Assembly: GCA_016188065.1 (NCBI GenBank)
Contig: JACPIN010000020.1
Span: 764-64,763 of the forward strand
DNA: 64,000 nucleotides
Origin: Candidatus Woesearchaeota archaeon
GTDB lineage: Archaea; Nanobdellota; Nanobdellia; SCGC-AAA011-G17; ARS1403
Direction: 5' to 3'
The notes under the pieces were generated by a model. It worked only from the letters and a program-made list of their open reading frames with translations, ran no database searches and was not told the origin of the DNA. Numbering within the stretch: the first letter of the stretch is position 1; the number at the start of each line of letters is the position of its first letter. The translations under genes and the position numbers were made by a program. Positions 26,595-50,031 of the stretch are shown here, piece after piece.

Positions 26595-27503
26595 TTAAAT
26601 TCTAACCCTTAATGCTAAAAATGTAAAAAAAACTATAAGGTTTACTACAATAGTTCCTAAGATATACGCGCTTGCTGTTATTACTGGGTCTAACCCAATA
26701 AATGTATAAAATAATGCTGCAGAAGATTCTTTTATTCCGAGCCCATTTGGTGTTATCGGTATGAATGTCAAAATTGTTATCATTGAATCAATCACGAGTA
26801 TATGAAGAAAATTAACTTGCTGCCCGAAAGATAAAAATAAAAATGAGACTGCCACTGATGAGATCATTGCTTTCAATATTGTTATAGTAAGATTAAATAG
26901 GATCGCTGATTTTTTGTGCTTGATAAGTTTCAAAAGGTTTGATGAAAATCCGCTGAACATTGTTGAATATTTTCTTAAAATATATTTTTTTATTATCGCT
27001 TTCACTTTTTCACTGATCATTGCAACTATAAATATAAATAGAAGAAAAGAGAGGACCATTAGCGGGAGAGTTAAATAATCTGTGTCAAACAAGAATATTG
27101 CTCCAATTGTTGAAGCTACTATAAGAAAGATCAAAGTGATTGCTTTATCAATAAGGTAGAGAACAGAGCTCAGTCCATATTCAACATTGTCTTTTTTAAG
27201 AAATTTTATCAAAATGAATTCTCCAATTTTTCCCGGTAAAATTAATCCTGATGCCCAACTCATCAAGTTGTACCTAAATAATTTGAGCAGTGGCATTTTT
27301 ACGCCCAGTGCATTTAATAATATCTTCAAGTTATACGCTCCTAATAGAAATAGTAAAATCCACAACAAAATCGTAGGGACTACCCATAACAGATTTGCGG
27401 ATAATAAGGTTTCAAACAGTTTCCTTATACCTAAAGTGTATGTTAGTATTGTTAATATCGCTGCTGCCAAAATAATTCTTTGAATAAAATTTTTAGAGAT
27501 CAT
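26595..27503 (-). CDS. polytopic membrane protein, flippase-like (lysyl-PG synthase TM-region / UPF0104-like)
   Basis: 302 aa with about 8 TM helices. Directly coupled to a downstream membrane-anchored GT2, a common archaeal pairing. Confidence 0.45.
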   Translation of the reverse strand: MISKNFIQRIILAAAILTILTYTLGIRKLFETLLSANLLWVVPTILLWILLFLLGAYNLKILLNALGVKMPLLKLFRYNLMSWASGLILPGKIGEFILIKFLKKDNVEYGLSSVLYLIDKAITLIFLIVASTIGAIFLFDTDYLTLPLMVLSFLLFIFIVAMISEKVKAIIKKYILRKYSTMFSGFSSNLLKLIKHKKSAILFNLTITILKAMISSVAVSFLFLSFGQQVNFLHILVIDSMITILTFIPITPNGLGIKESSAALFYTFIGLDPVITASAYILGTIVVNLIVFFTFLALRVRI

Positions 27504-28372
27504 TTTTTCATGTCTGCCAGAAATCCAAAGAGGATAATCTGAACTCCGACTATGTATAATAACGCAGTTACTATCGTCAAGGGAATATGTCCAACTCTTC
27601 CAGTTGCTATAAATGTATAAGCTAGAAAGAGGCTGTTTAACATGCCAACAAAGATAAATATGCTACCGAAGACTCCAAAGAACCTAAGAGGTTCAAAGTC
27701 TCTGTAAATCCTGAAGATATTTATCCATGCTTTTATCGCATAATCGAATGAATTTTTGAACAATCTGCTCTCCCTTGTTTTTCTTGTGCTTATCGGAATT
27801 TCTGCTACCTTCATCTTTGCCTTGCCTGCTCTTATCAACTGTTCTTGAGTATATGTAAAAGTGTTTATCAACGGAAGCTTTGCAACTTCTGATGTGAAAG
27901 CTCTGAACCCCGTGGTGGTATCTGTTATTTTTGTTTTTAATAATCCTGAGAAAACTTTTGCAAATGCTATGTTACCAACTCTTTTCATTAATGATCCTTG
28001 ATAATTGCCTCTTCCGAATCTCGCTCCAAGAACAAGATTATACCCCTCCTCAACTTTTTTAATCATTTCTGGGATATAATGCGCAGGATATTGCCCATCT
28101 GCATCTGTATGGATTATGATATCTGCCTTAAACTTCGTGCATTCTTCCATTTCTCTCTTAAATGTTTCAGCCAAGCCTAGATTTCTTGAGTTTGAAACAA
28201 CAATAGAACCATTTTCTCTTGCTATCTTGGCTGTATTATCTTTACTCCCATCATTGACTACAAGAATTTTATATTTATATCTTGTCGAGTCCATGACTTC
28301 TTTTATCTCTTTCAAGACATTCCCAATGTCCTTCTCTTCGTTGTAAGCTGGCAGTGTAATTACAATGTTCAT
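27500..28372 (-). CDS. GT2 dolichyl-phosphate hexose synthase-like glycosyltransferase with C-terminal TM helices
   Basis: MNIVITLPAYNEEKDIGNVL, HTDADGQYPA (DxD), and a hydrophobic C-terminus. Confidence 0.7.
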   Translation of the reverse strand: MNIVITLPAYNEEKDIGNVLKEIKEVMDSTRYKYKILVVNDGSKDNTAKIARENGSIVVSNSRNLGLAETFKREMEECTKFKADIIIHTDADGQYPAHYIPEMIKKVEEGYNLVLGARFGRGNYQGSLMKRVGNIAFAKVFSGLLKTKITDTTTGFRAFTSEVAKLPLINTFTYTQEQLIRAGKAKMKVAEIPISTRKTRESRLFKNSFDYAIKAWINIFRIYRDFEPLRFFGVFGSIFIFVGMLNSLFLAYTFIATGRVGHIPLTIVTALLYIVGVQIILFGFLADMKK

Positions 28373-29988
28373 TTCTGTATTTTATAGATATTTATTTTAT
28401 TTCTTGACTGGATTAATTCATAATCAAGCTCATGATTTGAAACAATTAAATCAATATTCTCTGGTGGATTTAAAACATTTCCTATGGCAATATTTTGATT
28501 CATCCAAAAAGCCATCGGGATAAATTGTGGAGAACATAATGCCTGATTGAACTTTGTAATTGGATCTATGCAATCTCTCTCATCGAATATTATGTTTGTA
28601 TTTGCTGGGAAATTCTTGCTAAGCCATGCTCCCAAAATTATATGATCTTCATTGTACCAATAAGTTTTTGAGTTAACATAATCAACTGTGTAATTTGTCA
28701 TCCCGACCAATAAGAAGAATAAAATAAATACTTTCAGCAGACTATTTAATTTAATTCTTTTATAGAAGAAATTTACAATAAACGGCAAAATAAAAAATAA
28801 AATAGAGAACAAAATTATCGATTTAGATTCATATGTTATTATGCCCAGCCATGTAAGCGACATATTATTTACTGGGAATAGCGGGAAAAAGATTAGTTGA
28901 GATGATGCTGCCAGAATAATTGAGCTGAAAAAGATGGGTAGATTGTAAAGTTTTTTATTGCTTAAGCCTAAAAAACCAGTGATTAGAATCAACGGAAGCA
29001 AAACATCTAGATATCTTCCAATTGGTCTGCCAGTTAGCCAACCAAACGAGGTTTTATAAAATATTGTGGTTACATTATATTTTGCCAGGACGAACAAAGT
29101 TGTTGCCACTGAAAATAGAAATATCAAAGATAATACCTTTTGTTTTTTATTATCGGTTTTTACCTTAATAAAACTTATACTTGCCAATGAAAACAAAATT
29201 CCTGAGGCAAGAACCAAAAATCCTAGATAAAGAATAATCCATATCAAAAATGACAAAATTCCTGTCGAGCTAAAGAGGTTGTTAGCCTCAATTATGTTAT
29301 CATAAGTTCTGAAGAATACATTCAAGTTAAATCCTAACAAAAACATATTCCTCAAAGTCCAAGGTAAGATAACTCCAAGTCCAACTGCCAATATTGAAAG
29401 AGCTTTCTTTTTTGATGCGAAAAAGAACAATAAGCCAACTACGATAAACAGCATGAATGCAGAGGTTTTTGTCAAGAAAGTCAAGCCTATAAATATCCCT
29501 GAAATTATCGGATAAATTTTTCTCTCATCCGTGAATGATTTGTAAATGAAATATACTGAAAATAAGAATAAAGGATAAAAAATATTCTCTGCCATGATAT
29601 ATCCTGAAAAAGAAAAATTGCTAGGCAATATTGAGACTAAGACTGCAGCATACACGGCTTTCTTTTTTGAGGTGAATTCTTTGGTAATAAGCCATGAAGG
29701 GAATAGAATCAAAGAAGAGATTAGTGCATTAATTAGTTTCATTACTGGATAAATGATATTCATGCTTTTGAAGAGGTAAGCCGGGGCTAATGCTAACGAA
29801 TATAATGGCGGAAAAAAGGCTGCTTTTCCTCCAACTTGCAGATTGAGATCATAAAAAATACTTCTAGCCATTTTTGCATAAATATAACTATCTGAAAAGG
29901 CAGTCGGGTATGGGATTGTATAAGATAAAACGAATTTAGCCAGGACAAAAACAAGATACCAAATCATTAACTTCTTAATCCACTTCAT
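28369..29988 (-). CDS. GT-C fold membrane glycosyltransferase (ArnT/PMT-like)
   Basis: 539 aa with 12 or more TM helices and an acidic first-loop motif near the N-terminus. Operonic with the GT2 and flippase-like genes. Confidence 0.5.
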   Translation of the reverse strand: MKWIKKLMIWYLVFVLAKFVLSYTIPYPTAFSDSYIYAKMARSIFYDLNLQVGGKAAFFPPLYSLALAPAYLFKSMNIIYPVMKLINALISSLILFPSWLITKEFTSKKKAVYAAVLVSILPSNFSFSGYIMAENIFYPLFLFSVYFIYKSFTDERKIYPIISGIFIGLTFLTKTSAFMLFIVVGLLFFFASKKKALSILAVGLGVILPWTLRNMFLLGFNLNVFFRTYDNIIEANNLFSSTGILSFLIWIILYLGFLVLASGILFSLASISFIKVKTDNKKQKVLSLIFLFSVATTLFVLAKYNVTTIFYKTSFGWLTGRPIGRYLDVLLPLILITGFLGLSNKKLYNLPIFFSSIILAASSQLIFFPLFPVNNMSLTWLGIITYESKSIILFSILFFILPFIVNFFYKRIKLNSLLKVFILFFLLVGMTNYTVDYVNSKTYWYNEDHIILGAWLSKNFPANTNIIFDERDCIDPITKFNQALCSPQFIPMAFWMNQNIAIGNVLNPPENIDLIVSNHELDYELIQSRNKINIYKIQK

Positions 29989-30041
29989 AATCGTAATCTC
30001 GTTAAAAAAGGCTTTTAAGCTTTCCTTTATACCATTATATA

Positions 30042-31484
30042 ATGAAGCAACTTGAAAACAAAGTATTTTATTTTTTGACTGTCTTTTTAGGAATCATATT
30101 CCTGATAAATTTTATAAAAATAAGTTCTCTAGTGTCGTATTTTCCATTAAATGATTTCATGGACGGCACAAGCTATATGGGAAGATTAGCATTATTGATA
30201 AAATATGGTTATCATAGTTTTGCTCCTAACTGGTATAATGGATTTTATGTGCTGCAGCATTATGCTCCTGGCTGGTTTTTTTTTACGCTACCATTATATT
30301 GGCTGACAGAAAGTATTGAAATTTCAACTTTTATTTCTATGTTCCTTTCTTATCTATTAAGCCTAATATTCTTTATCATGTTAGGAAAAGAATTCAGAAT
30401 TTCTTTAATAAAATCAATAGCTTTTTTCTTACTGTTTTATCTCTCCCCTTCGGCGTTTTCAAGTTTTTTTAACTTGGGAAGGCTTCCTGAACTACTTGCC
30501 TTTACATTATTCATTCCTGCATTTGTTTTAATTTATAAAAATAGAGAGTTAAATAAAAAGTTCTTTTTCTTGTTCTTTCTATTATTCAGCATCTTAATGC
30601 TGCAGCAATCTTCAATAGTTGTTTTCTTTTCTTTTCTTGTACTTGGATTATTTTTTTTAATTAGCTGGAAACAAAGACTTATTTTAAGCATCTTGATGAT
30701 TGTTGCTTTATTGCTTTCCTTATTCTGGCTTATACCCTTTCTCAATGATGAGGGAACAGCATTACAATATATTCGAGGGATAACTGTAGCAAATTTCATT
30801 TCTTTTGGAACAATAATTTCAATATTATTTTTTATTAGCTTCTTATTTTTTTGGAATGGAAGAAATAGAAATCGACGTGATCTGATATTTTTCTTACCTA
30901 GCTTGATTCTTTGTTTTCTTTATGCGACAAGATTAGTTTCGTTTATACCAATCTTGGATAAGATATGGCCCAACTCTTATAACTTATTTTTTACTTTCTT
31001 AACAATATTTTTTATTCTGGCGACTCGCTTTCAAAATAATGTATATAAATTAGTTAATTTTAGTTTATATCTTATTCCATTACTTGTGTTATTAATACAC
31101 TTTTTGTATCCAGTTAATGGATTTGACTATGGTGATACTGAATATGAAATTATTTCTATGTTTGAAAATGTAAATGATAGGGTGCTGATTGTTTCTGCAG
31201 GGGAAAGACTCGTATCTACAAGATCCTTGCTTGCATATGCTACCCATTATTACAATATAACTACGCCTGATGGCTGGGGAGAGTTCAGTGTTCAGCAGAA
31301 ATTGTATGAAAATGTTGAAGACACGAAAATTGTAGAAAACAAAAGCTGTGAAGAGATTACCAATAATCTTATAGATTTAGAAATAAGACAGATAGTGGCT
31401 TTGTCTGATGCATGCAGGATTTTATCTGATTGCCAATATGACATGGTAATTAAAAAGGAAAATGTTTGTCTATTAAAATTATAA
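30042..31484 (+). CDS. polytopic membrane protein, possible GT-C glycosyltransferase
   Basis: 480 aa, many TM helices, no recognisable soluble domain. The call rests on genomic context only. Confidence 0.35.
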   Translation: MKQLENKVFYFLTVFLGIIFLINFIKISSLVSYFPLNDFMDGTSYMGRLALLIKYGYHSFAPNWYNGFYVLQHYAPGWFFFTLPLYWLTESIEISTFISMFLSYLLSLIFFIMLGKEFRISLIKSIAFFLLFYLSPSAFSSFFNLGRLPELLAFTLFIPAFVLIYKNRELNKKFFFLFFLLFSILMLQQSSIVVFFSFLVLGLFFLISWKQRLILSILMIVALLLSLFWLIPFLNDEGTALQYIRGITVANFISFGTIISILFFISFLFFWNGRNRNRRDLIFFLPSLILCFLYATRLVSFIPILDKIWPNSYNLFFTFLTIFFILATRFQNNVYKLVNFSLYLIPLLVLLIHFLYPVNGFDYGDTEYEIISMFENVNDRVLIVSAGERLVSTRSLLAYATHYYNITTPDGWGEFSVQQKLYENVEDTKIVENKSCEEITNNLIDLEIRQIVALSDACRILSDCQYDMVIKKENVCLLKL

Positions 31485-31967
31485 AAACCTGTACAGAAGA
31501 GTTACCGTAATATAACTTAACACTCCAAAGAAAATTCCTCCTAGAACATCCCAAATGTCATGCTGTTTGAGCAATATCCTTGATGACCCTACTAAGATTA
31601 CTAGAATTGTAAAAAATAAAATCGTATATAAATCTGAAAAAATTCCAATCATAGATAATGATATCATTGTTATTCTTAAAGTATGGACACTTGGAAATGC
31701 ATGCCTGTCTGTTTTCATGAGGATTTTATTAAATCCTTTTAAAGAAGTCTCATTTTTTGTCTTCGCCGGTCTTGATTTTGAATAGATTATCTTGATTAGT
31801 GTTCCTAAAAGCATTCCGACAATAAGAAGCAAAAAAAGTTTAAGGCTCAGAATATACATCTTAAAGATAAACATTAGAATTATCAAAAAACAATAGAATG
31901 GTAGCCCCCCTAAAGCGGATATATCCGCGATTAATTTCATGAGAATTTGTTTATTCATTATCCCCAT
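31479..31967 (-). CDS. PAP2-family lipid phosphatase
   Basis: KIIYSKSRP (Kx6RP), PSVH (PSGH-like) and SRILLKQHDIWD (SRx5Hx3D). The ORF-track start at 32048 overlaps the divergent SDR gene, so Met 31967 is preferred. Confidence 0.7.
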   Translation of the reverse strand: MGIMNKQILMKLIADISALGGLPFYCFLIILMFIFKMYILSLKLFLLLIVGMLLGTLIKIIYSKSRPAKTKNETSLKGFNKILMKTDRHAFPSVHTLRITMISLSMIGIFSDLYTILFFTILVILVGSSRILLKQHDIWDVLGGIFFGVLSYITVTLLYRFL

Positions 31968-32019
31968 TATGCCTTCATAATATTTATAAAGTGCATATAA
32001 AGGTTTCTCTATTGGTAAA

Positions 32020-33018
32020 ATGCGAGACGTTGTATTTGTTACTGGCACTCCTGGTTGGCTTGGCTCTGCATTAGTTGAGGCACTAAAAAAAAATAAAAGG
32101 AAGGTTCGATGTCTGGTGCTTAAAGGAGCATCATTATTACATTTGCAGAACTTAGGTGTTGAGATTGTAGAAGGGGATATTGCTGTTCCTTCTTCTATAA
32201 AAGATGATTATTTCACAGATGTTTGTACTGTTTTTCATTGCGCGGGGATTATTCATCCAAAATTATTTCGTGCGAGAGATTTCTATAAGATAAATCGAGA
32301 CGGCACTAAAAATTTACTTGAAAAATCTGTATCTGCAGGAGTGGAGAAATTTATCTATATTAGTAGTAATGCTGCAGCAGGAGTTAACAAAGTAAATGGA
32401 AATCTAATGCGAGAGGGGGATACTGAAAATCCTTATACAGATTACGGCAAAAGCAAATGGCAGGCTGAGCAAGTTGTTAAGGAATTTCAAAATAAAAGAT
32501 TAATTAAGACAGTAATAATCCGCCCATGCTGGTTCTACGGCCCTAAACTGCCAGACAGGATGATAAAATTAGCTAAAATGATAAAATCTGGAAAGCCTCT
32601 ACTGTTTGGAGATGGAAAGAATCTTAGAAGCATGACTTATGTGTATGACCTTGTTGATGCTTTGATTCTTGCTGAAAAAAATAATAATGCAATAGGTCAG
32701 ACCTACTGGATAACGGATGAAAGGCCATACACTACAATAGAAATCTATCGGACCATGGCAAAAATATTCGAAGTGGATAATTTAGAATTTAGAAAAATAC
32801 CTGCTTCAGTATCTATCGTTTTAGAATTAGTTGACAAAACCTTAGGAAAATTTGGAATATATGAGATTAATTTCCACGTCGGTGGAGAGATGACAAGAGA
32901 TATTGCAGTCAGTATAGAGAAAGCCAAAAATGAGCTCGGATGGAAACCTAAACATGGGGGATTAGAAGAAGGGATGAGAGAATCTTTGAAATGGGCGATG
33001 GAGAATAATTTAATATAA
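32020..33018 (+). CDS. NAD-dependent epimerase/dehydratase (SDR)
   Basis: VTGTPGWLG (GxxGxxG) and YGKSKWQAE (YxxxK). Confidence 0.7.
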   Translation: MRDVVFVTGTPGWLGSALVEALKKNKRKVRCLVLKGASLLHLQNLGVEIVEGDIAVPSSIKDDYFTDVCTVFHCAGIIHPKLFRARDFYKINRDGTKNLLEKSVSAGVEKFIYISSNAAAGVNKVNGNLMREGDTENPYTDYGKSKWQAEQVVKEFQNKRLIKTVIIRPCWFYGPKLPDRMIKLAKMIKSGKPLLFGDGKNLRSMTYVYDLVDALILAEKNNNAIGQTYWITDERPYTTIEIYRTMAKIFEVDNLEFRKIPASVSIVLELVDKTLGKFGIYEINFHVGGEMTRDIAVSIEKAKNELGWKPKHGGLEEGMRESLKWAMENNLI

Positions 33019-33037
33019 TTGATATTCAAATTATTTT

Positions 33038-34063
33038 ATGAAAAAGGTTTTAATCACCGGGGGTTCTGGATTCTTTGGAGAACATCTTGCTGAAAGAATT
33101 CTTAAAGAAAATAATGAGATAGTTATATTTGATATTAATACCCCTTCTGAAAAAATTAAAAACTATGTAAAGTTTATCAGTGGCGACATAACAAACAAAC
33201 AAGAAATTATGAACGCCTGCAAAAATATTGACCTAGTCTACCATTCTGTTGCACTTGTCCCAATATCACGTGCAGGAGATCTTTTTCACAAAGTTAATGT
33301 TGTTGGTACAAGGAATCTTCTTGAGGCGTGTTTGATTAATAGAGTAAAAAAGGTTATACATATTTCCAGCAGCTCAGTTTATGGAATCCCCAGGGAATTT
33401 CCGTTGAAAGAAGATTCTGAATTAAGGCCTTTTGGTGAATATGCATCGACAAAATATCAGGCTGAGGAAATGTGCATGGAATATATAAAGAAAGGTATTA
33501 GTATAACAATTATCAGACCCAGAACAATTGTCGGCGAGGGAAGACTTGGGATTGTTGGAGTTATGTTTGATTGGATGCGCCGTGGAAAAAACATTTACTT
33601 GATTGGTTCTGGCAAAAACTATTATCAATTTATAAGCCCTTCTGATCTTGCAGATGCTTGCGTTCTGGCTGCTAAAAAAAATTACAATGAAGTTTTCAAT
33701 ATAGGAGCTGAGCAGTACAGAACATTAAGAGAAGATTTGACTGCATTAGCAGATTATGCCGGGAGCGGTGCAAAAGTTGTTGGCTTCCCATCTTCAGTGA
33801 TAAAATCCGGATTGTGGGTTCTTGATGTATTAAAATTGTCACCTTTTGTCTACTGGCATTATATGACTATCGACAAGAATTATGCTTTTGATGTAACTAA
33901 AGCAAAAAATATGCTTGGGTGGAAGCCGGAAAAGAGTAATTTTGATTGTCTCAAGGAAGCATATGACTGGTATCTAAAGAATTATAAAAATTTGAAATAT
34001 GGAAACACACACAAATCAGTTCCAAAACAGAAGCTACTAAAGATCGTGAGGGCATTTTCATGA
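33038..34063 (+). CDS. NAD-dependent epimerase/dehydratase (SDR)
   Basis: LITGGSGFFGEHL and YASTKYQAE. Confidence 0.7.
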   Translation: MKKVLITGGSGFFGEHLAERILKENNEIVIFDINTPSEKIKNYVKFISGDITNKQEIMNACKNIDLVYHSVALVPISRAGDLFHKVNVVGTRNLLEACLINRVKKVIHISSSSVYGIPREFPLKEDSELRPFGEYASTKYQAEEMCMEYIKKGISITIIRPRTIVGEGRLGIVGVMFDWMRRGKNIYLIGSGKNYYQFISPSDLADACVLAAKKNYNEVFNIGAEQYRTLREDLTALADYAGSGAKVVGFPSSVIKSGLWVLDVLKLSPFVYWHYMTIDKNYAFDVTKAKNMLGWKPEKSNFDCLKEAYDWYLKNYKNLKYGNTHKSVPKQKLLKIVRAFS

Positions 34064-34935
34064 ACAGATTTTTAAAATTCATATATGAAGGGATTAGATT
34101 ATGCAGACCCCATCAATGGTATAAAAATCTTTTAATTTTTCTACCAATTGTCTTTTCAAAGAATCTACTGACTGCAGAATTATGGTCTCCATTAATTCTT
34201 GGCTTTATCTCTTTAGTATTGATTTCATCTGTTAATTATATTTTCAATGATGCAATTGATTACCAAAAAGACAGAAAAAACCCTGAAAAGATGCACAGGC
34301 CAATAGCTTCCGGAATAATTTCCAGCTGGCGTGCTTCTATAATTGCAATGTTGTTATTATTTGGAGCATTGTACGTCTCTTTCTCTCTCAATATTATCTT
34401 TTTTTATATTGTGATCATGCTATTCTTTTTGACATTGATTTATTCTGTTTATCTTAAAAACGAATTGTTTGCAGACATTATAATTATTGGAATAAACTTT
34501 GTATTGAGGACAATTAGCGGTTCTATTCTGATGAATGCTGAAATCAGTCCTTGGGTAATAATATGCGTGTTCTTTTTCACATTGTTCCTTACTGTTGGAA
34601 AAAGGTATAGCGAGATAATTTTTCTCAAAGATGGTGCTTCTAATCACAGAAAAGTTCTTAATGAATATGACTCAAAAACATTAAACTCACTTATGGATAT
34701 AAGCACAACCGTTTTTATTATCACATTTAGCATTTTTACATTTTTCTCGCAACATAGCCAGAACCTAATCTATCTAGTTCCACTATTTGTGTATGTGATA
34801 TTAAGATATACCTGGCTTATTCGAAATGGGTCCATTATTGCAAGACATCCTGAGAAAATATACAAAGACAAGAAACTTTTTGTTTCGTTGCTGCTTTTTA
34901 TTTTCTTAAGCACTCTACTGATTTACTTCCCATAA
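34060..34935 (+). CDS. UbiA-family prenyl-phosphate phosphoribosyltransferase-like protein (DPPR synthase-like)
   Basis: NDAIDYQKDRKNPEKMHRPIASG closely matches the NDxxDxxxD...RPIAAG motif of decaprenyl-phosphate 5-phosphoribosyltransferase. Multi-TM. Confidence 0.65.
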   Translation: MNRFLKFIYEGIRLCRPHQWYKNLLIFLPIVFSKNLLTAELWSPLILGFISLVLISSVNYIFNDAIDYQKDRKNPEKMHRPIASGIISSWRASIIAMLLLFGALYVSFSLNIIFFYIVIMLFFLTLIYSVYLKNELFADIIIIGINFVLRTISGSILMNAEISPWVIICVFFFTLFLTVGKRYSEIIFLKDGASNHRKVLNEYDSKTLNSLMDISTTVFIITFSIFTFFSQHSQNLIYLVPLFVYVILRYTWLIRNGSIIARHPEKIYKDKKLFVSLLLFIFLSTLLIYFP

Positions 34936-34982
34936 CCCTTAAATACTTTAGTGAAACTTTATGTATACTATTCAGAGAGAAT

Positions 34983-36455
34983 ATGAATAGAGAAATACTA
35001 CTAATACAACCAAAAGCAGGTAGCTGGGAAACCTTAGGAATCAGACCCCCTGATGGGCTTTTAACTCTCGCGGCTATACCTAAAAAAGAAGGATACAATA
35101 TAAAAATATTAGATCTCAGATTGGAAAGAGATTGGAGATCCGTTGTTAGAAAACATGTTGAAAATGGACCTTTACTTGTTGCTACAACTTCTATGACTGG
35201 TCCTCAAATAAAATATGCTTTGGAACTTTCTCAATTTGTTAAGCAAATAGACAAATCAGTTCCTATCATATGGGGGGGATTGCATCCGACATTTTTACCT
35301 GAGCAAACTCTTGAAAATGAAAGCATCGACATTGTTGTTATTGATGAGGGAGATTTGACTTTCATTGATCTAATAAAGACCATTGAGAAAAACAAACCAT
35401 TAAAAGATGTGCTCGGAATTGCTTACAAAGATTCAGAAGATAAGATACATAAAAACCCCCCTCGAGGATTAATAAAAGATTTAGATACTCTTCCAGATAC
35501 TCCTTATGATTTAATAGATCTAAAAAAATATTATGGATTGGACATTGAGAAAGGAGAACCCTCAATAACCCTTATGACAAGCAGAGGATGCCCCTTTAAA
35601 TGCAATTTCTGCTATGATACAAAACTTTATGGAAATACTTGGAGAGCTTATTCTGTAGAAAGAACAATAAATATGATTAAAGATGTTGTTGAAAAATTTG
35701 GTGTTAAGAACATTTATTTCCAAGATGATAATTTTGCTACAAACTTGAAAAGATTCAAAGACATTATTCACAGAATTATTTAAGAGAAGATAGACATCAA
35801 ATTCGGGTTGCTTGGGATAAGAGTAGATACTCTCCAAATACTTGATGATAATTTTCTAAAGGACTTGAGTAGATCGGGCTGTGTTAACATTGATTCAGGT
35901 ATAGAATCTGGGAATGACAGGATTCTGAAGATGATTAGAAAGGGCATTACTTCACAACAAGTCAGAGAAGTGAATAAGAAAATGGGGAGATATAATTTCA
36001 ATGCCAAATATACATTCATTCTTGGCTATCCCTCTGAAACTAAAGATGAAATGATGGATTCTGTAAGGCTGGCACTGCAACTAGTAAAGGACAATAAAAA
36101 TGCGTACACCCCATTTTTTGTTTATGCTGCTTATCCTGGTGTTGGCCTTTGGGAGATTGCAAAACAATATGGACTTGAAGAACCTAAAAAATTAGAAGAT
36201 TGGTGCACAATTGATTTTGATAACGCCTACAATAATTATCCCTGGTTGAATGAAAAACAAATAAAAATAATAAAGAATATTGCATTCACTTCATTTTTTG
36301 CCAATAAAAACATAAAATATAAGATTTCCAGAAGATATCTAAGATTATTATTTGATCTTTACCAGCCATTTGCAAAATTAAGATTTAGATATAACCTTTA
36401 TCAGTTTCCAATTGACAGGGTATTGGCTAAGTCAGTAGCAAACTCAATGTACTGA
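34983..36455 (+). CDS. B12-binding (class B) radical SAM protein interrupted by an in-frame TAA at 35781-35783
   Basis: Cobalamin-domain N-terminus, SRGCPFKCNFC, then after the stop the same frame continues with ...IDSGIESGNDRILKMIRKGI and the rSAM C-terminal half. Confidence 0.65.
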
Positions 36456-36496
36456 TTTTCAATACTCTTAAAAATGTTTTTTCCTAGATCCTATCG

Positions 36497-38074
36497 ATGA
36501 GATATAGGATGAAGATTGCACTTTTTTTGATAGTCCTAATGATTGCAGTCGCACTGAGAGTTTATTCAATGCAACATTATGTCGGTGTTAATTCTAATGG
36601 TTTTAATGCTGAGCCATTATATGGTGATGAAGCAGCTTATTATGAACTTGGGAGAAATGTTTACTTAGGAGAAGGGCCTGTAGAATACGTTGTCTGGGAT
36701 TTATGGGCACATAATGAGGTTCCTCATTTGCATTCTTTTTGGCCGCCGTTTTTTGCATATCTTATAGGGGCATTATTTTATATTTTTGGTGAAAGCATTT
36801 TTGTAATAAGGTTATTTGCATTTATCATCTCTTTACTAACGGTAATTTTAACTTATTATATTGGAAGTAAAATTTATGATAATAAAATTGGATTAATTGC
36901 AATGTTTCTAATTGCAATTAATCCATTTCATATTTTTCATTCCGGACTTATCATGATTGAGAATTTATTTACTTTTTTTGTATTGCTATTCATATTTTTT
37001 GCATATAAATCCTTTTACCATGGAAAATTAATTTATTGGATTTTACTTGGATTGAGCTTGGGGATAGCGACTATAACAAGGTATTTCGGATTTTTATTGT
37101 TAATAGGTTTGATGATTATTATTTTCATCAGAAGAAAAAATATAAAAATAAGTTATGCATTGATTTCACTTATAATTTTCCTTTTTGTGATTCTCCCAGT
37201 TGGAATCCAAACATATAAGAATTTTGGATCTCCGTTTTACTCTACAAGCACCTACATGAAATATGTTGATCATAGGGTTAGCTATTATGAGCCAAATCCG
37301 CCAAGCCTTGAAAAATATTTGAGCAGACCGATTGGAGAATTAGTTTATGAACGCCTTTACGGTGTTGGAAGGGTAATTGTCCTTTTCCCTCAAATTATTA
37401 CCCCAATAATATTTGCATTACTATTTTTATCATTAATTTTCATTGATAGATTTTCTAAATTTGTATTAACTTTTTTTGTAATATTTTATTTTTTTATTAT
37501 ACTTTCAATAGGTCCAGGATATTTAATAGGGGAAAGGTACCTAATATATTTTGTTCCATCACTTTTAATAATAGCTGCTTACTCTATGAAAAGTTTGGTT
37601 GATAAAGATAATAGACATATTAAACATGCTGTTGTAGCAATGTTAATCTTTACATTTTTATTTTCTTCTGCGAGGATAATAAATTTTTTTGACGAGTATC
37701 CGACTCCTGAGCAAAGAAACATCCTTGGATTCAATGACAAAGATATCTATGAAATGAGTTTGTGGATAAAGAGAAATACGCATAAAGATGATGTAATGAT
37801 GTCCGACTCTTTTTCCATTTCAAGATTTTTTTTCGATAGAAGGATTGTTAATAACCCTTATCCGAGGATTATCTCAATGAACTTGAATGATTACTCTGAA
37901 GAAGCTAAAACAATCCATATTGATCAGGCCAAGAAATTTAATGTTTCTTATTTAATGATCACTCCAAGAAGCGGTGATAGGGAGGAAATATTGTATGGAT
38001 TTTCTGAGTTTGAGCCTGAACTTATAAAGAATATAAGTGGGGTTTACTTATACAAATTGGATAAGTCAAAATGA
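36497..38074 (+). CDS. GT-C fold membrane glycosyltransferase (ArnT/PMT-like, GT39/83-type)
   Basis: 525 aa multi-TM. First-loop YGDEAAYYELG resembles the DE-x-x-Y catalytic motif of ArnT/PMT enzymes. Confidence 0.55.
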   Translation: MRYRMKIALFLIVLMIAVALRVYSMQHYVGVNSNGFNAEPLYGDEAAYYELGRNVYLGEGPVEYVVWDLWAHNEVPHLHSFWPPFFAYLIGALFYIFGESIFVIRLFAFIISLLTVILTYYIGSKIYDNKIGLIAMFLIAINPFHIFHSGLIMIENLFTFFVLLFIFFAYKSFYHGKLIYWILLGLSLGIATITRYFGFLLLIGLMIIIFIRRKNIKISYALISLIIFLFVILPVGIQTYKNFGSPFYSTSTYMKYVDHRVSYYEPNPPSLEKYLSRPIGELVYERLYGVGRVIVLFPQIITPIIFALLFLSLIFIDRFSKFVLTFFVIFYFFIILSIGPGYLIGERYLIYFVPSLLIIAAYSMKSLVDKDNRHIKHAVVAMLIFTFLFSSARIINFFDEYPTPEQRNILGFNDKDIYEMSLWIKRNTHKDDVMMSDSFSISRFFFDRRIVNNPYPRIISMNLNDYSEEAKTIHIDQAKKFNVSYLMITPRSGDREEILYGFSEFEPELIKNISGVYLYKLDKSK

Positions 38075-39309
38075 AAGAAGATTTTTTTGCCTATATTATA
38101 ATAATCCTTGCATTTACTATCCCTCTGATTTTGCTAGTTAATCTGTCTTTTTGCGACCTTGATTCTGACGAATGTTTACTTCGCATTGAGCCTTTAATGC
38201 CTGATTTTTACTGGCATCATAATATTATCAAATATGTAGCTTCTCACGGGGATTTTCCTGATTATGTGCTTGGATATGAAGACGGAGGAGAATCTGGCGA
38301 TTCCCTATATGGAAAGACGAAACCTGTTTTACATAGCCCATTATATTATTATATCGCTGCTGGAGTTTTAATCCTTTCAAAGAAATTTTCTCTTAACCCA
38401 CTTCTAAACCTGCATATACTCTCCTTGCTCTTTACCCTTATAGCCAATATATTCTTTTATTTTTTTACTAAAAAAATTTCTGCAGGGATGTACAAAAAAA
38501 ATCGTTTCACTATCTCGGCTATTGCGCTTTCTGTTTTCCTGCCAATTAATCTTTATATGGGATTGGCCATACATAATCATGCATTTTTTTATGCTATGGC
38601 TATGTTAAGCCTTTATCTATTTGCATTATTTAATGAAAAGAATAGCTTATTCATGGCATTAGCTTTTGGAATCATTCTGGGAGTATCTCTTTTATCGAAT
38701 TTAATTGGAATAACCCTGCTCGTGGCGCTACTCATTTACATTGCCTATATTATACATGGGCGGGAATTTAACGAAGCTAGACTACTTATAATTTCACTAT
38801 TGATTGGGAGCTTTATCGGTGCCTTTGTTTTGGCCAGGAATTATATCTTATTTGGCGAGTTTATCTGGGCCGGACTTTTTGAGCCAGTTACAAGAAACGC
38901 TTTTGTTTTACTTCATGTTTTAACCTCTTATTTCGGGGGGGTATATGGAAGGATCCCTTTTATTTTTCCTTTAGCGGGACTTGCAAGTTTATTTGTATTG
39001 ATAGTTAGTGTTTTTGGTTTTTTTAACCCTCTGATGTGGAAAAAAGATCTGCAGTATATATGGATTATTGGAATATTAACCCTAATTTTTGGATTCAATA
39101 CGGTGTGCAGCGTATTTTCTTTTTTCAAAACTTTTTCTTGTACAGGAAATATTGTACATGGAAGATATTTTCTTTTAGCAAATCCCCTCCTTATTCTGTT
39201 TTTTTCATCTGGTTTTGCTAGATTTATTAAAAATAAAAAAATATTTTATTTTATTCTAGCGCTCATCTGTACTTTATATTTAATAGATTTCATGTACGCC
39301 TTTTTTTAA
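38071..39309 (+). CDS. polytopic membrane protein (glycosylation-associated)
   Basis: 412 aa multi-TM. ATGA-coupled to the upstream GT-C gene. Confidence 0.35.
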   Translation: MKEDFFAYIIIILAFTIPLILLVNLSFCDLDSDECLLRIEPLMPDFYWHHNIIKYVASHGDFPDYVLGYEDGGESGDSLYGKTKPVLHSPLYYYIAAGVLILSKKFSLNPLLNLHILSLLFTLIANIFFYFFTKKISAGMYKKNRFTISAIALSVFLPINLYMGLAIHNHAFFYAMAMLSLYLFALFNEKNSLFMALAFGIILGVSLLSNLIGITLLVALLIYIAYIIHGREFNEARLLIISLLIGSFIGAFVLARNYILFGEFIWAGLFEPVTRNAFVLLHVLTSYFGGVYGRIPFIFPLAGLASLFVLIVSVFGFFNPLMWKKDLQYIWIIGILTLIFGFNTVCSVFSFFKTFSCTGNIVHGRYFLLANPLLILFFSSGFARFIKNKKIFYFILALICTLYLIDFMYAFF

Positions 39310-39354: not shown

Positions 39355-39452
39355 CGAAAGCTTTATATAGAGGGTGTGTTTCTATATCGATAATTAAACG
39401 AGGTTGATATCAATTGCATTTATCTAAAATAAATCAAAGGGGTGTGTATATA
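39355..39452 (+). promoter_or_regulatory. putative strong promoter and leader of the surface glycoprotein gene
   Basis: TTTATATA at 39364-39371 followed by GGGTGTGTTTCTA. GGGGTGTGTAT ribosome-binding site immediately before the ATG. The same motifs recur upstream of the other surface-protein gene. Confidence 0.4.
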
Positions 39453-41840
39453 ATGGATAAAAAAGTGGGTGTATCTGTTTTATTTGGTTTTCTTCTTCTT
39501 GTTGGTTTGGTCGTTACAAATGCTATAGTAGATTCAAGTGATTCTCCATCTGATATGTTGAGGTCTGCAAATATTACTTTATATGGAGATGCAATAAGCA
39601 TTGATAATGCAAGTATCGGTGGTGGAAGTGAAATTGTTAATTTAACTGTTCGTGCAGGTGTTTCTGATAGTTCTGGTTTAAATAATATTACAAATATTAC
39701 TGTTACATGGGATGCTAATTTTACTTTCTTGGGATGGATTTCTGTTACTGACGTATTTGAGAGTGCATGTACAAATCAAGCACTTGGACTTGATTGTAGT
39801 CTTGGAGACAGTGATGATGGCGGTGCCTCTAATGCTACAATTTTCAATAATGTTACATTAATTACTGATGGAACTTCAACAGATTCACTTTCAGCTAATT
39901 GGAGTTGTAGAAATCTTTCAGCGACCAGTGTAAATTGTTATAATGATACTGACTTCTCAGCTTTGGTGGGTAATGGGAACAATACATTATTAATTAGATT
40001 TAATGTAACTGCAGCTTCTAATATTGAAGACAGAAGTATATTCATTGTAAATGTGTCAAACTCTGAAGCAAGTATCGCTGGCACTAATGAATCACAATTA
40101 ACTGTGTTTGTTGATGGAAAGGCTCCAACTTTATTAGAATTAAATATATCTGATGGGAATACTACTTGGGAAAATGGTACATTTAATGGAACTGTTGGAG
40201 AAGGATATTCAACTTTCTTAAGCAATCAGAGTCCTTTAACTGTTACTGCTACAGTTCTTGAGCAAAACCCTGATGATGCTACAGTATGGTTATTCTTCAA
40301 TGGATCTAACATAAACAGCAATGTGGCATGGGGTGAACTTGACAGAGGATTTTTATTATATCCTGCTAACAGAACAGAAGTAACACCTACAGTTACTAGA
40401 GGTACTTTATCAGGTGTGGCTACTTCATATTATACACATGCTATTAAGTATGAGTGGACTATTCCTGCTGGATCTGTTGCTAATTTTGGAGATAGTGCTA
40501 CTTTAAATCAGACAATAGCATTCATGGGGCTTGCAAATGACACACTTAATCAGGAGAATACTTTTAACGATACAACAACTATAAATGCTGCAGCGGTACC
40601 ATTTATGATATTATTGAACGATACATTGCCACGAGTATTTAATTTAACTTTGAAGGATCATAAGAGCAATGAATTGAAAGGCGGAAATGCAGATGGAAGC
40701 GGTGATTATTTGGCTGAAGGCAATATAACAATTACAATTGACGTAAAAGGAGCACCTAAGCCTACAATGGATTTGATTAATGGATCTACAATATATTTGT
40801 TTTATAATACAACTGGATCTTTAACAAGTTTGCAGAATGGTGAGATTGCAAACTTTGATGAAAAGATTAATTTGACTGATGTGAACATTACAGTATCATC
40901 CAGTGCTAGTGTAGTTGATCCTGATACTGTTGAGACTTATGAAACTTCAATATATTTGAATGCAAATGCAAGTAACGATGTTGAAATTTATGTTGTAGTT
41001 GGTAATAAATCAGAAGACATGAATCAAGCTGATTTAGGTTTAGCAGGAAATTATACATCTGAAGTGTTTATGAAGTTCAGAGTTGATGGTACAAATCCTG
41101 GAGCAGAGTTAAGTACTCCAAATAATAGGGGATTGGGATTATCTGGAAGCAGTACTTTCACTCAGATTGCAGAAGAATCAAAGACCACTGGAACAGATAC
41201 ACAGAAATTCAGCGGAACAGATATTAGTACTGCTGGAACCTATAATGTAAGATGCAGAGTTACTGATGCGGTTGGCAATGTTAAAGATACAGATACAACA
41301 AACCTTAATCAATTTACTGTAAGCATTTCATCAACTGGAGGTGGTGGTGCGGGTACTGGTGGCGGAGCAGGAGCAGCTGTAAGTTTTGATGTTGACTTTA
41401 CAAGTTCACCTCAAGCTACATTTAAAGCTAGCCAAGGAAGAGTCAAGAGCTTCAGTTTTGATGGGATAACAAAACACACAATAACATTCAGTGAAGTAGC
41501 TTCAGATAGCGTTACATTAATAATAGCATCTGATCCAATAACTGCTAAACTAAATGTAGGTCAAAGCAAATCTATTGATGTAAATGCTGATGGGACAGAT
41601 GATATGAAAGTCCAACTAAATGGGATAGACAATGGTGTCGCTGATGTTACTGTAACTAAGATGGAGGAAGGCGCAGCAAAGATAAAAGCTCAAGAGGAAC
41701 AGGCAAGAGAAGAATCAACTGGAGAAGTGGGTGAAGGGGTAATACCTGTTGCTGGAAGAAGCCTGGCTTGGTTATGGTGGACATTGATAGTAATTGTAGC
41801 TATCGTTGCAATCGGCTATTATGTAAATAAAAGGAAGTAA
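39453..41840 (+). CDS. secreted surface glycoprotein, S-layer-like, with C-terminal TM anchor
   Basis: Signal peptide MDKKVGVSVLFGFLLLVGLVVTNA, more than 30 N-x-S/T sequons, Thr/Ser/Asn-rich, and a C-terminal LAWLWWTLIVIVAIVAIGYYVNKRK anchor. AGGGGTGTG ribosome-binding site before ATG 39453 with TATA-like TTTATATA upstream. Confidence 0.65.
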   Translation: MDKKVGVSVLFGFLLLVGLVVTNAIVDSSDSPSDMLRSANITLYGDAISIDNASIGGGSEIVNLTVRAGVSDSSGLNNITNITVTWDANFTFLGWISVTDVFESACTNQALGLDCSLGDSDDGGASNATIFNNVTLITDGTSTDSLSANWSCRNLSATSVNCYNDTDFSALVGNGNNTLLIRFNVTAASNIEDRSIFIVNVSNSEASIAGTNESQLTVFVDGKAPTLLELNISDGNTTWENGTFNGTVGEGYSTFLSNQSPLTVTATVLEQNPDDATVWLFFNGSNINSNVAWGELDRGFLLYPANRTEVTPTVTRGTLSGVATSYYTHAIKYEWTIPAGSVANFGDSATLNQTIAFMGLANDTLNQENTFNDTTTINAAAVPFMILLNDTLPRVFNLTLKDHKSNELKGGNADGSGDYLAEGNITITIDVKGAPKPTMDLINGSTIYLFYNTTGSLTSLQNGEIANFDEKINLTDVNITVSSSASVVDPDTVETYETSIYLNANASNDVEIYVVVGNKSEDMNQADLGLAGNYTSEVFMKFRVDGTNPGAELSTPNNRGLGLSGSSTFTQIAEESKTTGTDTQKFSGTDISTAGTYNVRCRVTDAVGNVKDTDTTNLNQFTVSISSTGGGGAGTGGGAGAAVSFDVDFTSSPQATFKASQGRVKSFSFDGITKHTITFSEVASDSVTLIIASDPITAKLNVGQSKSIDVNADGTDDMKVQLNGIDNGVADVTVTKMEEGAAKIKAQEEQAREESTGEVGEGVIPVAGRSLAWLWWTLIVIVAIVAIGYYVNKRK

Positions 41841-42454: not shown

Positions 42455-42981
42455 GTTTTATTAATTTTAAATCTAAATTCTATCTCCTGTGCTGGAAATA
42501 CTTTATCTAAAAAATTAGCATAAAACCATGCGTGTTTATTGGCAAATCTTTCCATAAATTTGAAGTATTTAGAGAAGACAAGATTGATTTGCTGATCAGT
42601 TAATTTTACATTATGATTATTGCGATAGCTTTGCTTTTCTTCCACATAAGGATTAAATGCTATATGGGAAAAGGATCTTTTTGCATATTCGCCATGAGCT
42701 AAGAAATGTGAATAATAATTTACTATTATTTTAATATTAGCTTCATTTTTGCAGATTCTGTAAATCTCTTCCATTGCATTTTCTAAATTATCTACGTACT
42801 GCAAAACATGCCTGCAGTAAACCTCTTCGACAGAATTATTCTCTAAAGGAATCCCCTCTGAAACATCTGCTACGATGTCAATATTGTCTCCTGGAACTAT
42901 GTCTAAATTAGTAAAACCTTCGATTCTTCCTTTACCACTTCCTAGATTTAGCTTCATTTTAATAAATCCTTCCAGTGCCAC
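42445..42981 (-). CDS. class I SAM-dependent methyltransferase
   Basis: LNLGSGKGRIEGFTNLDI methyltransferase motif I. Confidence 0.6.
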   Translation of the reverse strand: MALEGFIKMKLNLGSGKGRIEGFTNLDIVPGDNIDIVADVSEGIPLENNSVEEVYCRHVLQYVDNLENAMEEIYRICKNEANIKIIVNYYSHFLAHGEYAKRSFSHIAFNPYVEEKQSYRNNHNVKLTDQQINLVFSKYFKFMERFANKHAWFYANFLDKVFPAQEIEFRFKINKTQK

Positions 42982-46076: not shown

Positions 46077-46165
46077 TAAATACACACCTCCATGTGTCCC
46101 ATTAATTTGGGAATATTATTCATTAGATGTTTAGAAACCCACTCGGTTTATATAGCTTATGGTTA
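46077..46165 (-). promoter_or_regulatory. putative strong promoter and leader of the S-layer-type gene
   Basis: Minus-strand TATATAAA (plus 46146-46153) followed by GTGGGTTTCTA. GGAGGTGTGTATTTA precedes the ATG. Confidence 0.4.
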
Positions 46166-47034: not shown

Positions 47035-47107
47035 TGGGTCCGCCCAGAATTGAACTGGGGATCTCCGCTACGTCAAAGCGACGTCATAACCACTAGACCA
47101 CGGACCC
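47035..47107 (-). tRNA. tRNA-Val (anticodon GAC)
   Basis: Hand-folded cloverleaf: acceptor GGGTCCG/CGGACCC, anticodon loop TTGACGT, T-arm CCCAG-TTCAATT-CTGGG, discriminator A. No intron. Confidence 0.8.
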
Positions 47108-49978: not shown

Positions 49979-50031
49979 CTATAAATAATAAAATCAAGAA
50001 ATCAATTTTTTAAACATATCTAAAATCTAAT

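Follow-up and report, generated by a model that had tools for sequence, protein, structure and literature searches.

The window analysed here, the whole 64-kb stretch from a Candidatus Woesearchaeota archaeon, is mostly a surface-glycan island. It encodes GT2 and GT4 glycosyltransferases, a GDP-mannose 4,6-dehydratase, a sugar C-methyltransferase, a Wzx-like flippase, several radical SAM (S-adenosylmethionine) enzymes, a phosphonate cluster, S-layer-like proteins and at least five short-chain dehydrogenase/reductase (SDR) or epimerase genes besides those considered below. Within this island lies a plus-strand operon with the order SDR1, SDR2, UbiA, B12-binding radical SAM, GT-C and GT-C-like gene, while a PAP2 phosphatase gene is located just upstream on the opposite strand and is divergently transcribed. 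The operon and the PAP2 gene are considered as a putative pathway for a lipid-linked pentofuranose, centred on the UbiA-family enzyme, which is compared with polyprenyl-phosphate 5-phosphoribosyltransferases (PPPRS). The UbiA, PAP2, two SDR and GT-C genes named in a preliminary description of this DNA were all found in place, with Pfam or profile support, and the radical SAM gene between UbiA and the GT-Cs can be added to that list. The features concerned are the following.

34060 to 34935, plus strand: UbiA-family protein of 291 amino acids, putative PPPRS (Pfam UbiA, E 1.3e-25).
34246 to 34314, plus strand: loop-II motif NDAIDYQKDRKNPEKMHRPIASG of this protein (N63, D64, D67, D71, K77, R80), from the alignment to Rv3806c.
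31479 to 31967, minus strand (open reading frame possibly to a GTG at 32048): PAP2 membrane phosphatase, candidate 5'-phosphatase (Pfam PAP2, 1.4e-14).
32020 to 33018, plus strand: SDR1, extended SDR of 332 amino acids, candidate oxidase/reductase or epimerase acting on lipid-phosphate-ribofuranose (Pfam Epimerase, 2e-33).
33038 to 34063, plus strand: SDR2, extended SDR of 341 amino acids, of a PPPRS-linked subfamily (Pfam Epimerase, 5.9e-44).
34983 to 36455, plus strand: B12-binding radical SAM protein, 490 amino acids when intact, accessory (Pfam B12-binding and Radical_SAM).
36497 to 38074, plus strand: GT-C protein of 525 amino acids, the best pentofuranosyltransferase candidate (PMT_2 4.4e-19, PMT 5.7e-12).
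38071 to 39309, plus strand: divergent GT-C-like membrane protein of 412 amino acids, second transferase candidate (PMT_2 2.2e-4, sub-threshold).

Regarding the UbiA-family protein, the motif on which the preliminary description had based its likeness to decaprenyl-phosphate phosphoribosyltransferase, NYIFNDAIDYQKDRKNPEKMHRPIASG, is contained in the open reading frame 34060-34935, at about 34246-34314. In NCBIfam, the protein matches three decaprenyl-phosphate phosphoribosyltransferase models with 188, 169 and 136 bits and a HAD-UbiA fusion model with 161 bits, whereas the other UbiA families follow with 69 bits for the next-best, 31-38 for UbiA/MqnP, 29 for heme O synthase and 26-28 for digeranylgeranylglyceryl-phosphate synthase (DGGGPS). 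The sole sequence match in the Protein Data Bank (PDB) is Rv3806c from Mycobacterium tuberculosis (E 1.2e-31), over the full length (residues 12-281 on 18-290). A profile of 25 archaeal UbiA homologues also ranked Rv3806c (PDB code 8j8j) first with 176 bits, compared to 52 for AfUbiA, 39 for DGGGPS, 25 for chlorophyll synthase and 18 for ApUbiA. The AlphaFold (AF2) model of the protein is all-helical and conforms to the UbiA fold of approximately nine transmembrane helices and two cytoplasmic Asp-rich loops, with a mean confidence (pLDDT) of 95.2, and superimposes on 8j8j with a template modelling (TM) score of 0.86 and a root mean square deviation of 2.8 Å, with 25% identity in the structural alignment, compared to TM scores of approximately 0.72 for AfUbiA and 0.67 for DGGGPS. 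The protein is thus placed by profile scores and fold ranking, which set it apart from DGGGPS and from the quinone and heme prenyltransferases, in line with the DPPR-synthase type proposed earlier.

The active site gives the same picture. In Rv3806c, Mg2+ is coordinated by N73 and D77, the ribose is contacted by N73 and Q135, the 5-phosphate by K28, Y70 and Y157, and the pyrophosphate by R22, K87, R90, K143 and Y138, the phosphoribose-binding residues not being conserved among other UbiA enzymes (PMC10994848). The residues R22, K28, Y70, N73, D77, K87, R90, Y138 and K143 are identical in the window protein (R16, K22, Y60, N63, D67, K77, R80, Y128 and K133, respectively), and Y157 is replaced by F147, a change that is also seen in some mycobacteria; 10 of the 11 residues contacting phosphoribosyl pyrophosphate (PRPP) or Mg2+ are therefore kept or conservatively replaced. 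In loop II, N63, D64, D67, D71, K77 and R80 align to N73, D74, D77, D81, K87 and R90 of Rv3806c, residues that bind Mg2+/pyrophosphate or are required for activity (PMC10994848, PMC11127046), and in loop IV the GKRYSE sequence matches GKRYAE of Rv3806c, bearing the KRxxE motif. Among the 25 archaeal homologues, nearly all of the PRPP/Mg2+ residues are invariant, the loop-II set is invariant or nearly so, and the equivalents of the 5-phosphate-binding K28 and Y70 are invariant as well. As judged from these sequence and fold comparisons, the protein very probably belongs to the PPPRS branch typified by Rv3806c. The subfamily is large, with 952 matching clusters (50% identity) at a threshold of E≤1e-30.

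Gene neighbourhoods were studied from a pattern scan in which each species was represented by a single genome. At least 479 species-level genomes contained a relative, and the best 80 loci, almost all from Woesearchaeota/Nanoarchaeia, were analysed. All 1,153 neighbour genes of these loci were clustered (BLAST/Louvain), and Pfam domains were assigned to the representatives of the clusters and to a pool of 150 neighbours; this clustering was used instead of single-sequence phmmer searches of the window proteins against the open reading frames of the loci, which were too insensitive for GT-C and PAP2. Genes are counted as near when no more than three genes from the UbiA gene and as far when at least five genes away, and the Fisher p-values are rough and indicative only, because the loci are phylogenetically related. 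With these counts, the association of partner genes with UbiA is more than chance: PAP2 is found 9 times near and never far, the PHP phosphoesterase 16 times against 1, and an amine-oxidase-like FAD enzyme 21 times against 2. DUF2304 is near in 10 cases and far in 1. Many of the contigs are titled 'uncultured Methanosarcinales archaeon' (L007, L010, L011, L015 and others); they carry Woesearchaeota-like genes, with UbiA proteins 45-50% identical to those of Woesearchaeota, and their taxonomic labels look unreliable.

The PAP2 gene probably starts at the ATG at 31967, giving 162 amino acids, as called on near-identical contigs, within a full open reading frame of 31479-32048 on the minus strand. 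The catalytic motifs K-x6-RP, PSxH and SR-x5-H-x3-D are intact in the translation, and the earlier placement of a PAP2 phosphatase beside UbiA thus stands. In 10 of the 80 loci, PAP2 and UbiA are no more than approximately 1 kb and three genes apart, while PHP is within three genes in 16, and the two phosphatases never occur together in one locus. Loci L041 and L070 are alike, both having the order SDR, SDR, FAD oxidase, phosphatase, UbiA, EamA, EamA, with the phosphatase slot filled by PHP in one and by PAP2 in the other. Another recurring layout is GT2, a 250-residue protein, GT-C, sometimes DUF362, UbiA and PAP2 (L014, L018, L019, L024 and others). Across the related loci, the slot is occupied by PAP2, PHP, HAD or PgpA, four unrelated families, which fits the removal of a phosphate from a soluble headgroup better than carrier recycling. 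The PAP2 protein is therefore a candidate for the 5'-phosphatase, the role of Rv3807c in mycobacteria, because its motifs are intact and the phosphatase partners are conserved and interchangeable. Such an exchange of PAP2, PHP, HAD and PgpA is a clear case of non-orthologous replacement and is useful for annotation.

Both SDRs are extended SDRs of the GalE/3-beta-hydroxysteroid dehydrogenase (3-beta-HSD) type. SDR1 has the GxxGxxG and YxxxK motifs, and in SDR2, T7, G8, G9, G11 and G14 (TGGxGxxG), D32, Y135 and K139 are invariant among 22 sequences, with S110 and S112 nearly invariant. Both match the Epimerase and 3Beta_HSD families, and the adh_short family is matched by one of them at just 6.5e-6. 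DprE2 is a classical SDR. Consequently, of the two SDR epimerase/reductases proposed earlier in a DprE2-like role, the presence of both holds, while the DprE2 type gives way to the extended class.

SDR2 defines an orthologous group of 35-40% identity (214-264 bits, the next SDRs reaching at most 134 bits), and its orthologues lie one to four genes from UbiA in six other Woesearchaeota loci. Seven more distant homologues with 40-47% identity were sampled (from Chloroflexota, Sungbacteria, Bathyarchaeota, Limnocylindrales and three other genomes); in six cases a UbiA gene is no more than four genes away, and the remaining homologue adjoins a PHP gene and a transposase. The phosphatases encoded at these distant loci are HAD (fused or standing alone), PHP or PgpA, accompanied by small transporters of the GtrA or SMR type, by YfhO GT-Cs and, in three of the loci, by a GMC oxidoreductase. 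Orthologues of SDR1 are present in three of the distant loci, those of Chloroflexota (50% identity), Bathyarchaeota (39%) and Limnocylindrales (39%), the last one being the C-terminal half of a GMC-oxidoreductase::SDR fusion, which suggests redox chemistry on the same substrate. The Chloroflexota locus has the order UbiA, SDR1, SDR2, GtrA, PHP and a membrane protein. Since SDR1 and SDR2 orthologues recur beside UbiA in bacteria and archaea, PPPRS, SDR1 and SDR2 are, as far as gene order and sequence indicate, a unit conserved across domains. Among the 80 loci, an SDR lies within three genes of UbiA in 11, and SDR genes are counted 16 times near and 8 times far.

A DprE1-type oxidase had been noted as missing, and for the 64-kb window this is borne out: the Pfam scan of its approximately 57 main open reading frames gave no FAD_binding_4, GMC or amine-oxidase domain, and tblastn of the window with a related FAD oxidase gave no match. 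The Chloroflexota and Bathyarchaeota loci likewise lack an FAD oxidase. None of the partners that accompany UbiA in related loci (DUF362, PHP, the amine-oxidase-like FAD enzyme, DUF2304 and the 250-residue protein of cluster 12) was found in the window by tblastn.

Other Woesearchaeota have a fuller module resembling the decaprenyl-phosphate arabinose (DPA) pathway (L041, L043, L052, L070, L072 and L030), consisting of an SDR2 orthologue, a 310-residue SDR, an amine-oxidase/phytoene-desaturase-like FAD enzyme, PHP or PAP2, UbiA and two small EamA proteins. This FAD enzyme may take the place of DprE1 without being homologous to it, and the paired EamA proteins resemble the ArnE/ArnF flippase. 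In bacterial PPPRS/SDR2 loci with a GMC oxidoreductase (L088 4437-7004, L086 3118-6948 and L090 1270-4942), the oxidoreductase of L088 is fused to an SDR1-type domain (855 amino acids) and a DprE1-fold FAD_binding_4 gene lies nearby, while in L086 and L090 a conserved pair of unannotated proteins of approximately 611-617 and 137 amino acids precedes it.

Upstream of the PAP2 gene, the window encodes a 480-residue membrane protein, followed by a minus-strand operon of GT-C, GT2 and LPG_synthase_TM genes and then by two radical SAM genes. These neighbours, together with a surface protein downstream of the plus-strand operon, are as follows.

30042 to 31484, plus strand: GT-C-like membrane protein of 480 amino acids (no Pfam match, profile-profile comparison only).
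28369 to 29988, minus strand: GT-C protein of 539 amino acids, first gene of the minus-strand operon (PMT_2 6.6e-9).
27500 to 28372, minus strand: GT2 protein with a hydrophobic C-terminal region (Glycos_transf_2 5.2e-22).
26595 to 27503, minus strand: LPG_synthase_TM protein, candidate flippase of a lipid-linked sugar (PF03706 4.6e-29).
39414 to 41840, plus strand: surface protein of 808 amino acids with a C-terminal membrane anchor, candidate acceptor (from its sequon count and position).

The four large membrane proteins are all related to ArnT/PMT-type GT-C glycosyltransferases. Two of them have PMT_2/PMT matches, and three were compared by hhalign with an alignment of 26 GT-Cs neighbouring PPPRS genes, a comparison in which membrane-protein composition bias can inflate scores: 28369-29988 reached a probability of 99.2%, the family alignment of 30042-31484 98.0% (E 1.7e-13) and 38071-39309 97.5% (E 7.5e-12, over 298 columns including the loop-1 PLxxD). 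In this way, the several large GT-C membrane proteins of the preliminary description are corroborated. The loop-1 aspartate is present in all four proteins, the sequences FSD, PLMPD and PL-ND of the three compared by hhalign aligning with the PLWWD motif of the family. Among solved structures, the profile of PPPRS-adjacent GT-Cs has ArnT (5ezm, GT83) as best relative (E 4e-17), then Pmt1, PIG-M and AglB, and no match to Emb/Aft enzymes was obtained.

Not all four proteins are assigned to the same sugar. The 28369-29988 gene is translationally coupled to the GT2 and LPG_synthase_TM genes, with a 4-nucleotide overlap with GT2. The C-terminal hydrophobic region visible in the translation of the GT2 protein probably forms two membrane helices, and this protein would be a polyprenyl-phosphate glycosyltransferase-like enzyme of the GtrB/Dpm1 type; thus, the minus-strand operon is a separate three-component system, in an arrangement classical for lipid-phosphate-hexose. 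Orthologues of the 480-residue protein adjoin GT2 genes in L012, L027, L031, L033 and L039. The 28369-29988 and 30042-31484 proteins then probably use a different, GT2-made lipid-linked sugar and not the pentose, and, as they are coupled to or paired with GT2 genes, only 36497-38074 and 38071-39309 are assigned to the pentose pathway. These two genes, which also overlap by 4 nucleotides, are likely candidates for pentofuranosyltransferases. Across the 80 loci, a GT-C lies within three genes of UbiA in 25.

The LPG_synthase_TM gene belongs to the neighbouring operon, 6.5 kb from the PPPRS gene. In L061 and L081, the PPPRS gene is immediately followed by a member of this family, and in Methanobacterium paludis (locus L092, CP002772 176700-193569) the genes UbiA, PHP, LPG_synthase_TM, DUF362 and GT-C are consecutive. 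Because of this run, the protein could tentatively be taken as a flippase candidate.

When these elements are put together, the plus-strand operon and the PAP2 gene probably encode an archaeal counterpart of the pathway for pentofuranose glycosylation outside the cytoplasm, a reading of moderate confidence. The earlier proposal of a lipid-linked pentofuranose donor used outside the membrane gains support from the PPPRS identity, the PRPP-binding residues and the recurring PAP2, SDR and GT-C neighbours. In the predicted sequence of reactions, the UbiA enzyme would transfer 5-phosphoribose from PRPP to a polyprenyl phosphate, in archaea presumably dolichyl phosphate, producing lipid-phosphate-ribose-5-phosphate, a step proposed because of the close homology and the conserved active-site residues. 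The PAP2 protein would then remove the 5'-phosphate, and the NAD-dependent SDR1 and SDR2 would alter the configuration of the ribose on the lipid, as suggested by the synteny across phyla and by the precedent of the SDR epimerase ORF13 from Citrobacter youngae (PMC11127046). The two SDRs could act as an oxidase/reductase pair replacing DprE1/DprE2 without FAD or as epimerases like ORF13; the product may be arabinofuranose (Araf), xylofuranose (Xylf), another pentofuranose or unchanged ribose. The lipid-linked pentofuranose would be flipped, possibly by the LPG_synthase_TM protein, and the 36497-38074 and 38071-39309 enzymes would pass the sugar to a surface glycoconjugate outside the membrane. 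It is a more tentative proposal, possible but on balance doubtful, that archaea in several groups (DPANN of the Woesearchaeota type, Bathyarchaeota and Methanobacterium) make PRPP-derived lipid-linked pentofuranoses that are 2'- or 3'-epimerised by an NAD-dependent SDR pair replacing DprE1/DprE2.

Several observations weigh against this pathway. The UbiA protein stays under the NCBIfam equivalog cutoffs (188.1 bits for a cutoff of 234 in NF008977, 168.7 for 207 in NF008978 and 135.8 for 474 in NF008976), and Q135 of Rv3806c, which contacts the ribose O3, is T125 in the window protein, the only real difference in the PRPP site. Enzymes of the PAP2 family mostly work at the outer face of the membrane, where the recycling of polyprenyl diphosphate is often their function. 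Membership of DprE2 is excluded for SDR1 and SDR2 by their family class (Epimerase/3Beta_HSD and not classical SDR). As a group, GT-Cs are near UbiA in 27 cases and far in 20 (p approximately 0.06), a weak signal since GT-Cs are common in glycosylation islands, and inside the operon there is no dedicated flippase of the GtrA, SMR/EamA or MATE type. Furthermore, the window lacks DUF362, the most frequent UbiA neighbour in Woesearchaeota, and many DPANN archaea may make no isoprenoid carriers themselves.

According to a narrower explanation, only the PPPRS and at least one GT-C form a pentose pathway, delivering plain ribofuranose, while the SDRs, PAP2 and radical SAM genes are ordinary neighbours in the island, namely NDP-sugar (nucleotide diphosphate sugar) enzymes and a carrier-lipid pyrophosphatase. 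The window is indeed a dense glycan island in which at least five SDR/epimerase genes are present besides these two, NDP-sugar enzymes and lipid-acting 3-beta-HSD enzymes match SDR1 and SDR2 with about equal scores, the best NCBIfam matches of PAP2, although weak, are undecaprenyl-diphosphatases, and the radical SAM family is not enriched beside PPPRS genes. However, chance neighbours are hard to reconcile with SDR2 orthologues standing beside PPPRS in the six Woesearchaeota and six of the seven distant loci, three of which add SDR1, with the 4-nucleotide overlap between SDR2 and the UbiA start codon, or with four unrelated phosphatase families in one slot. This explanation is thus considered unlikely, though it keeps some weight.

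The PPPRS product could instead be a membrane lipid head-group or another ribose-derived lipid intermediate, possibly processed by the DUF362 and FAD enzymes in related archaea, with the GT-Cs serving other lipid-linked sugars. DUF362 is the commonest and most tightly linked UbiA neighbour in Woesearchaeota (34 near, none far), M. formicicum has only UbiA and PHP linked, with no GT-C, and the overall GT-C enrichment is weak. On the other hand, one GT-C family (BLAST cluster 4) is next to UbiA in 15 of the 80 loci and within two genes in 21, with 23 copies at most two genes away against 3 copies at least five genes away. A GT-C also closes the consecutive run in M. paludis, the bacterial relatives have YfhO GT-Cs together with small flippases, and all of the characterised members of the PPPRS branch make donors for GT-Cs (PMC11127046, PMC10994848), so that a lipid product of this kind seems quite improbable. 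As a last alternative, a conventional prenyltransferase (DGGGPS, heme O, menaquinone or other aromatic type), suggested by the UbiA superfamily membership and by the automatic JGI name '4-hydroxybenzoate polyprenyltransferase' of homologues, is very improbable, since the DGGGPS, heme O synthase and UbiA/MqnP models reach only 26-38 bits compared to 188, Rv3806c ranks far ahead by profile and by fold, and the window protein has the equivalents of K28 and Y70, which other UbiA enzymes do not conserve (PMC10994848) but which the archaeal family keeps without variation.

DUF362 copies stand beside PPPRS in L014 (8339-9412), L045 (8943-10007), L092 of M. paludis (10604-11731) and approximately 25 other loci, and are 61-77% identical between genomes whose UbiA proteins are only approximately 45% identical. 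DUF362 belongs to the same Pfam clan as the N-domain of the lactate racemase LarA (PMC11770544) and might serve the pathway as an epimerase similar to LarA, although its position may also simply reflect conserved synteny.

Returning to the pentofuranose pathway, lipid-linked donors of this kind are known from mycobacterial cell walls, where their synthesis is a drug target, from Pseudomonas pilin and, since 2024, from enterobacterial O antigens. Among known systems, the bacterial three-component pentofuranose system (Kelly et al. 2024) comes nearest, together with the DPA pathway of mycobacteria; the examples given by Kelly et al. are bacterial, plus one from a phage (PMC11127046). In C. youngae O1/O2, a UbiA-type PPPRS acts on PRPP and polyprenyl phosphate, followed by a 5'-phosphatase (PMC11127046), and the same logic continues with an optional cytoplasmic SDR epimerase acting on the lipid, a flippase, for which the window has a candidate only, and a GT-C outside the membrane. 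In C. youngae O2, the SDR epimerase turns undecaprenyl-phosphate-ribofuranose into the corresponding xylofuranose donor, and GT-C enzymes use such donors; the ORF13 motifs, TGxxGxxG and YxxxK (PMC11127046), are both found in SDR1 and SDR2. Besides these similarities, the phosphatase of C. youngae is a fused HAD domain and not a separate PAP2 membrane protein, there is none or one SDR instead of two extended ones, the flippase is of the MATE type, for which the operon described here has no gene, and the GT-C belongs to GT136, the GT-Cs of the window being ArnT/PMT-like by Pfam and profile. The inserted B12-radical SAM gene is another difference, and in an archaeal host the carrier would presumably be dolichyl phosphate and the acceptor something other than the lipopolysaccharide of C. 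youngae.

Compared to the mycobacterial DPA pathway (Rv3806c, Rv3807c, DprE1/DprE2, Rv3789 and Emb/Aft), the PPPRS is homologous with a nearly identical PRPP/Mg2+ site, Rv3807c and the window phosphatase are both PAP2-type proteins, and the consumers are GT-Cs. Meanwhile, the DprE1-type FAD oxidase and the classical SDR DprE2 have extended SDRs and no such oxidase as counterparts in the window, the GT-Cs are nearest to ArnT/Pmt1 and not to Emb/Aft, and the GtrA-like Rv3789 has no homologue there.

The ArnT/ArnC/ArnE-F and GtrA-GtrB-GtrV systems, where a lipid-phosphate-monosaccharide made by a GT2 is flipped and used by a GT-C, share their logic with the minus-strand operon (26595-29988). The profile of PPPRS-adjacent GT-Cs is nearest to ArnT, and ArnE/F-like EamA pairs stand beside PPPRS in related archaeal loci; however, the donor of the Arn/Gtr systems is made by a GT2 from a nucleotide sugar, while in the plus-strand operon a UbiA-type phosphoribosyltransferase would make it from PRPP. 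The D-arabinofuranosylation of Pseudomonas aeruginosa pilin (PPPRS, DprE1/E2 homologues and TfpW; PMC11127046) also combines a PPPRS-derived pentofuranose with a GT-C and a surface-protein target, with DprE1/DprE2 homologues that are absent from the window, and by analogy it is a plausible model for the modification of a neighbouring surface protein. The features distinguishing the present locus from the known systems are the archaeal host, the two-SDR module with no FAD oxidase and the PAP2 phosphatase.

A literature search, made largely outside subscription journals, found no account of this pathway in archaea. The earlier statement that it is not known from archaea thus stands for published accounts but not for sequence records, where the enzyme family already bears the automatic name 'decaprenyl-phosphate phosphoribosyltransferase' in RefSeq/GenBank (including M. 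paludis, M. formicicum, M. aggregans and M. oryzae). If the interpretation is correct, the pathway extends to a second domain of life, and a new class of surface sugar, so far unreported from archaeal surfaces, is predicted on S-layer or other envelope glycoconjugates. The SDR pair, which travels with PPPRS in archaea and bacteria, often in loci with no FAD oxidase, is possibly an anaerobe-adapted means of epimerising lipid-linked ribose. The route to Araf, Xylf or a related sugar would then need neither oxygen nor quinone and would be common to several uncultivated bacterial phyla. The cultured M. paludis, with its compact module, makes the prediction testable.

Regarding a possible acceptor, the 808-residue surface protein is encoded directly downstream of the GT-Cs. 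It has no Pfam match, carries a C-terminal anchor and a Gly-rich linker, and contains 35 N-x-S/T sequons where approximately 15 would be expected. The protein or its glycans may be the acceptor, a link suggested by position only. A second large surface protein (43809-46085, 758 amino acids) has an S_layer_C domain and sequons at the expected number.

The B12-binding radical SAM gene has an in-frame TAA at 35781-35783, where four contigs from other samples that are 99.97-99.99% identical (L001-L004) read GAA and encode the intact 490 amino acids. This single G>T change is either a nonsense mutation at the strain level or an error of the assembly, and recoding, considered along with a split gene, was rejected. 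The position of the gene suggested a member of the module, but this was dropped for lack of enrichment (5 near, 12 far) and the gene is treated as accessory.

The window as a whole has a G+C content of approximately 33% and encodes the ribosomal proteins S3Ae and S13/S15, and the homologues of its proteins are nearly all from Woesearchaeota/Nanoarchaeia (DPANN) metagenome-assembled genomes. The phosphonate biosynthesis cluster at 11197-17809 comprises a phosphoenolpyruvate (PEP) mutase::cytidylyltransferase fusion, two TauD-family dioxygenases, a nucleotidyltransferase, a thiamine pyrophosphate enzyme resembling phosphonopyruvate decarboxylase and an Fe-alcohol dehydrogenase, which suggests phosphonate-decorated surface glycans in a DPANN archaeon. 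A family of small glycosyltransferase-like proteins is expanded to five paralogues of approximately 230-260 amino acids with weak Anp1/GT2 matches (42954-43730, 47107-47856, 54625-55368, 55370-56074 and 56053-56751), three of them in tandem. ARAGORN reported two overlong tRNA-Phe genes, 50031-50118 and 60021-60112 (minus strand), of 88 and 92 nucleotides, one with the anticodon AAA and the other with the anticodon at position 39, and these may be either archaeal tRNA genes with introns or miscalls. Two further genes, at 50863-51924 and 60987-61901 (minus strand), code for a RelA/SpoT-domain protein and a Fic-domain protein, respectively.

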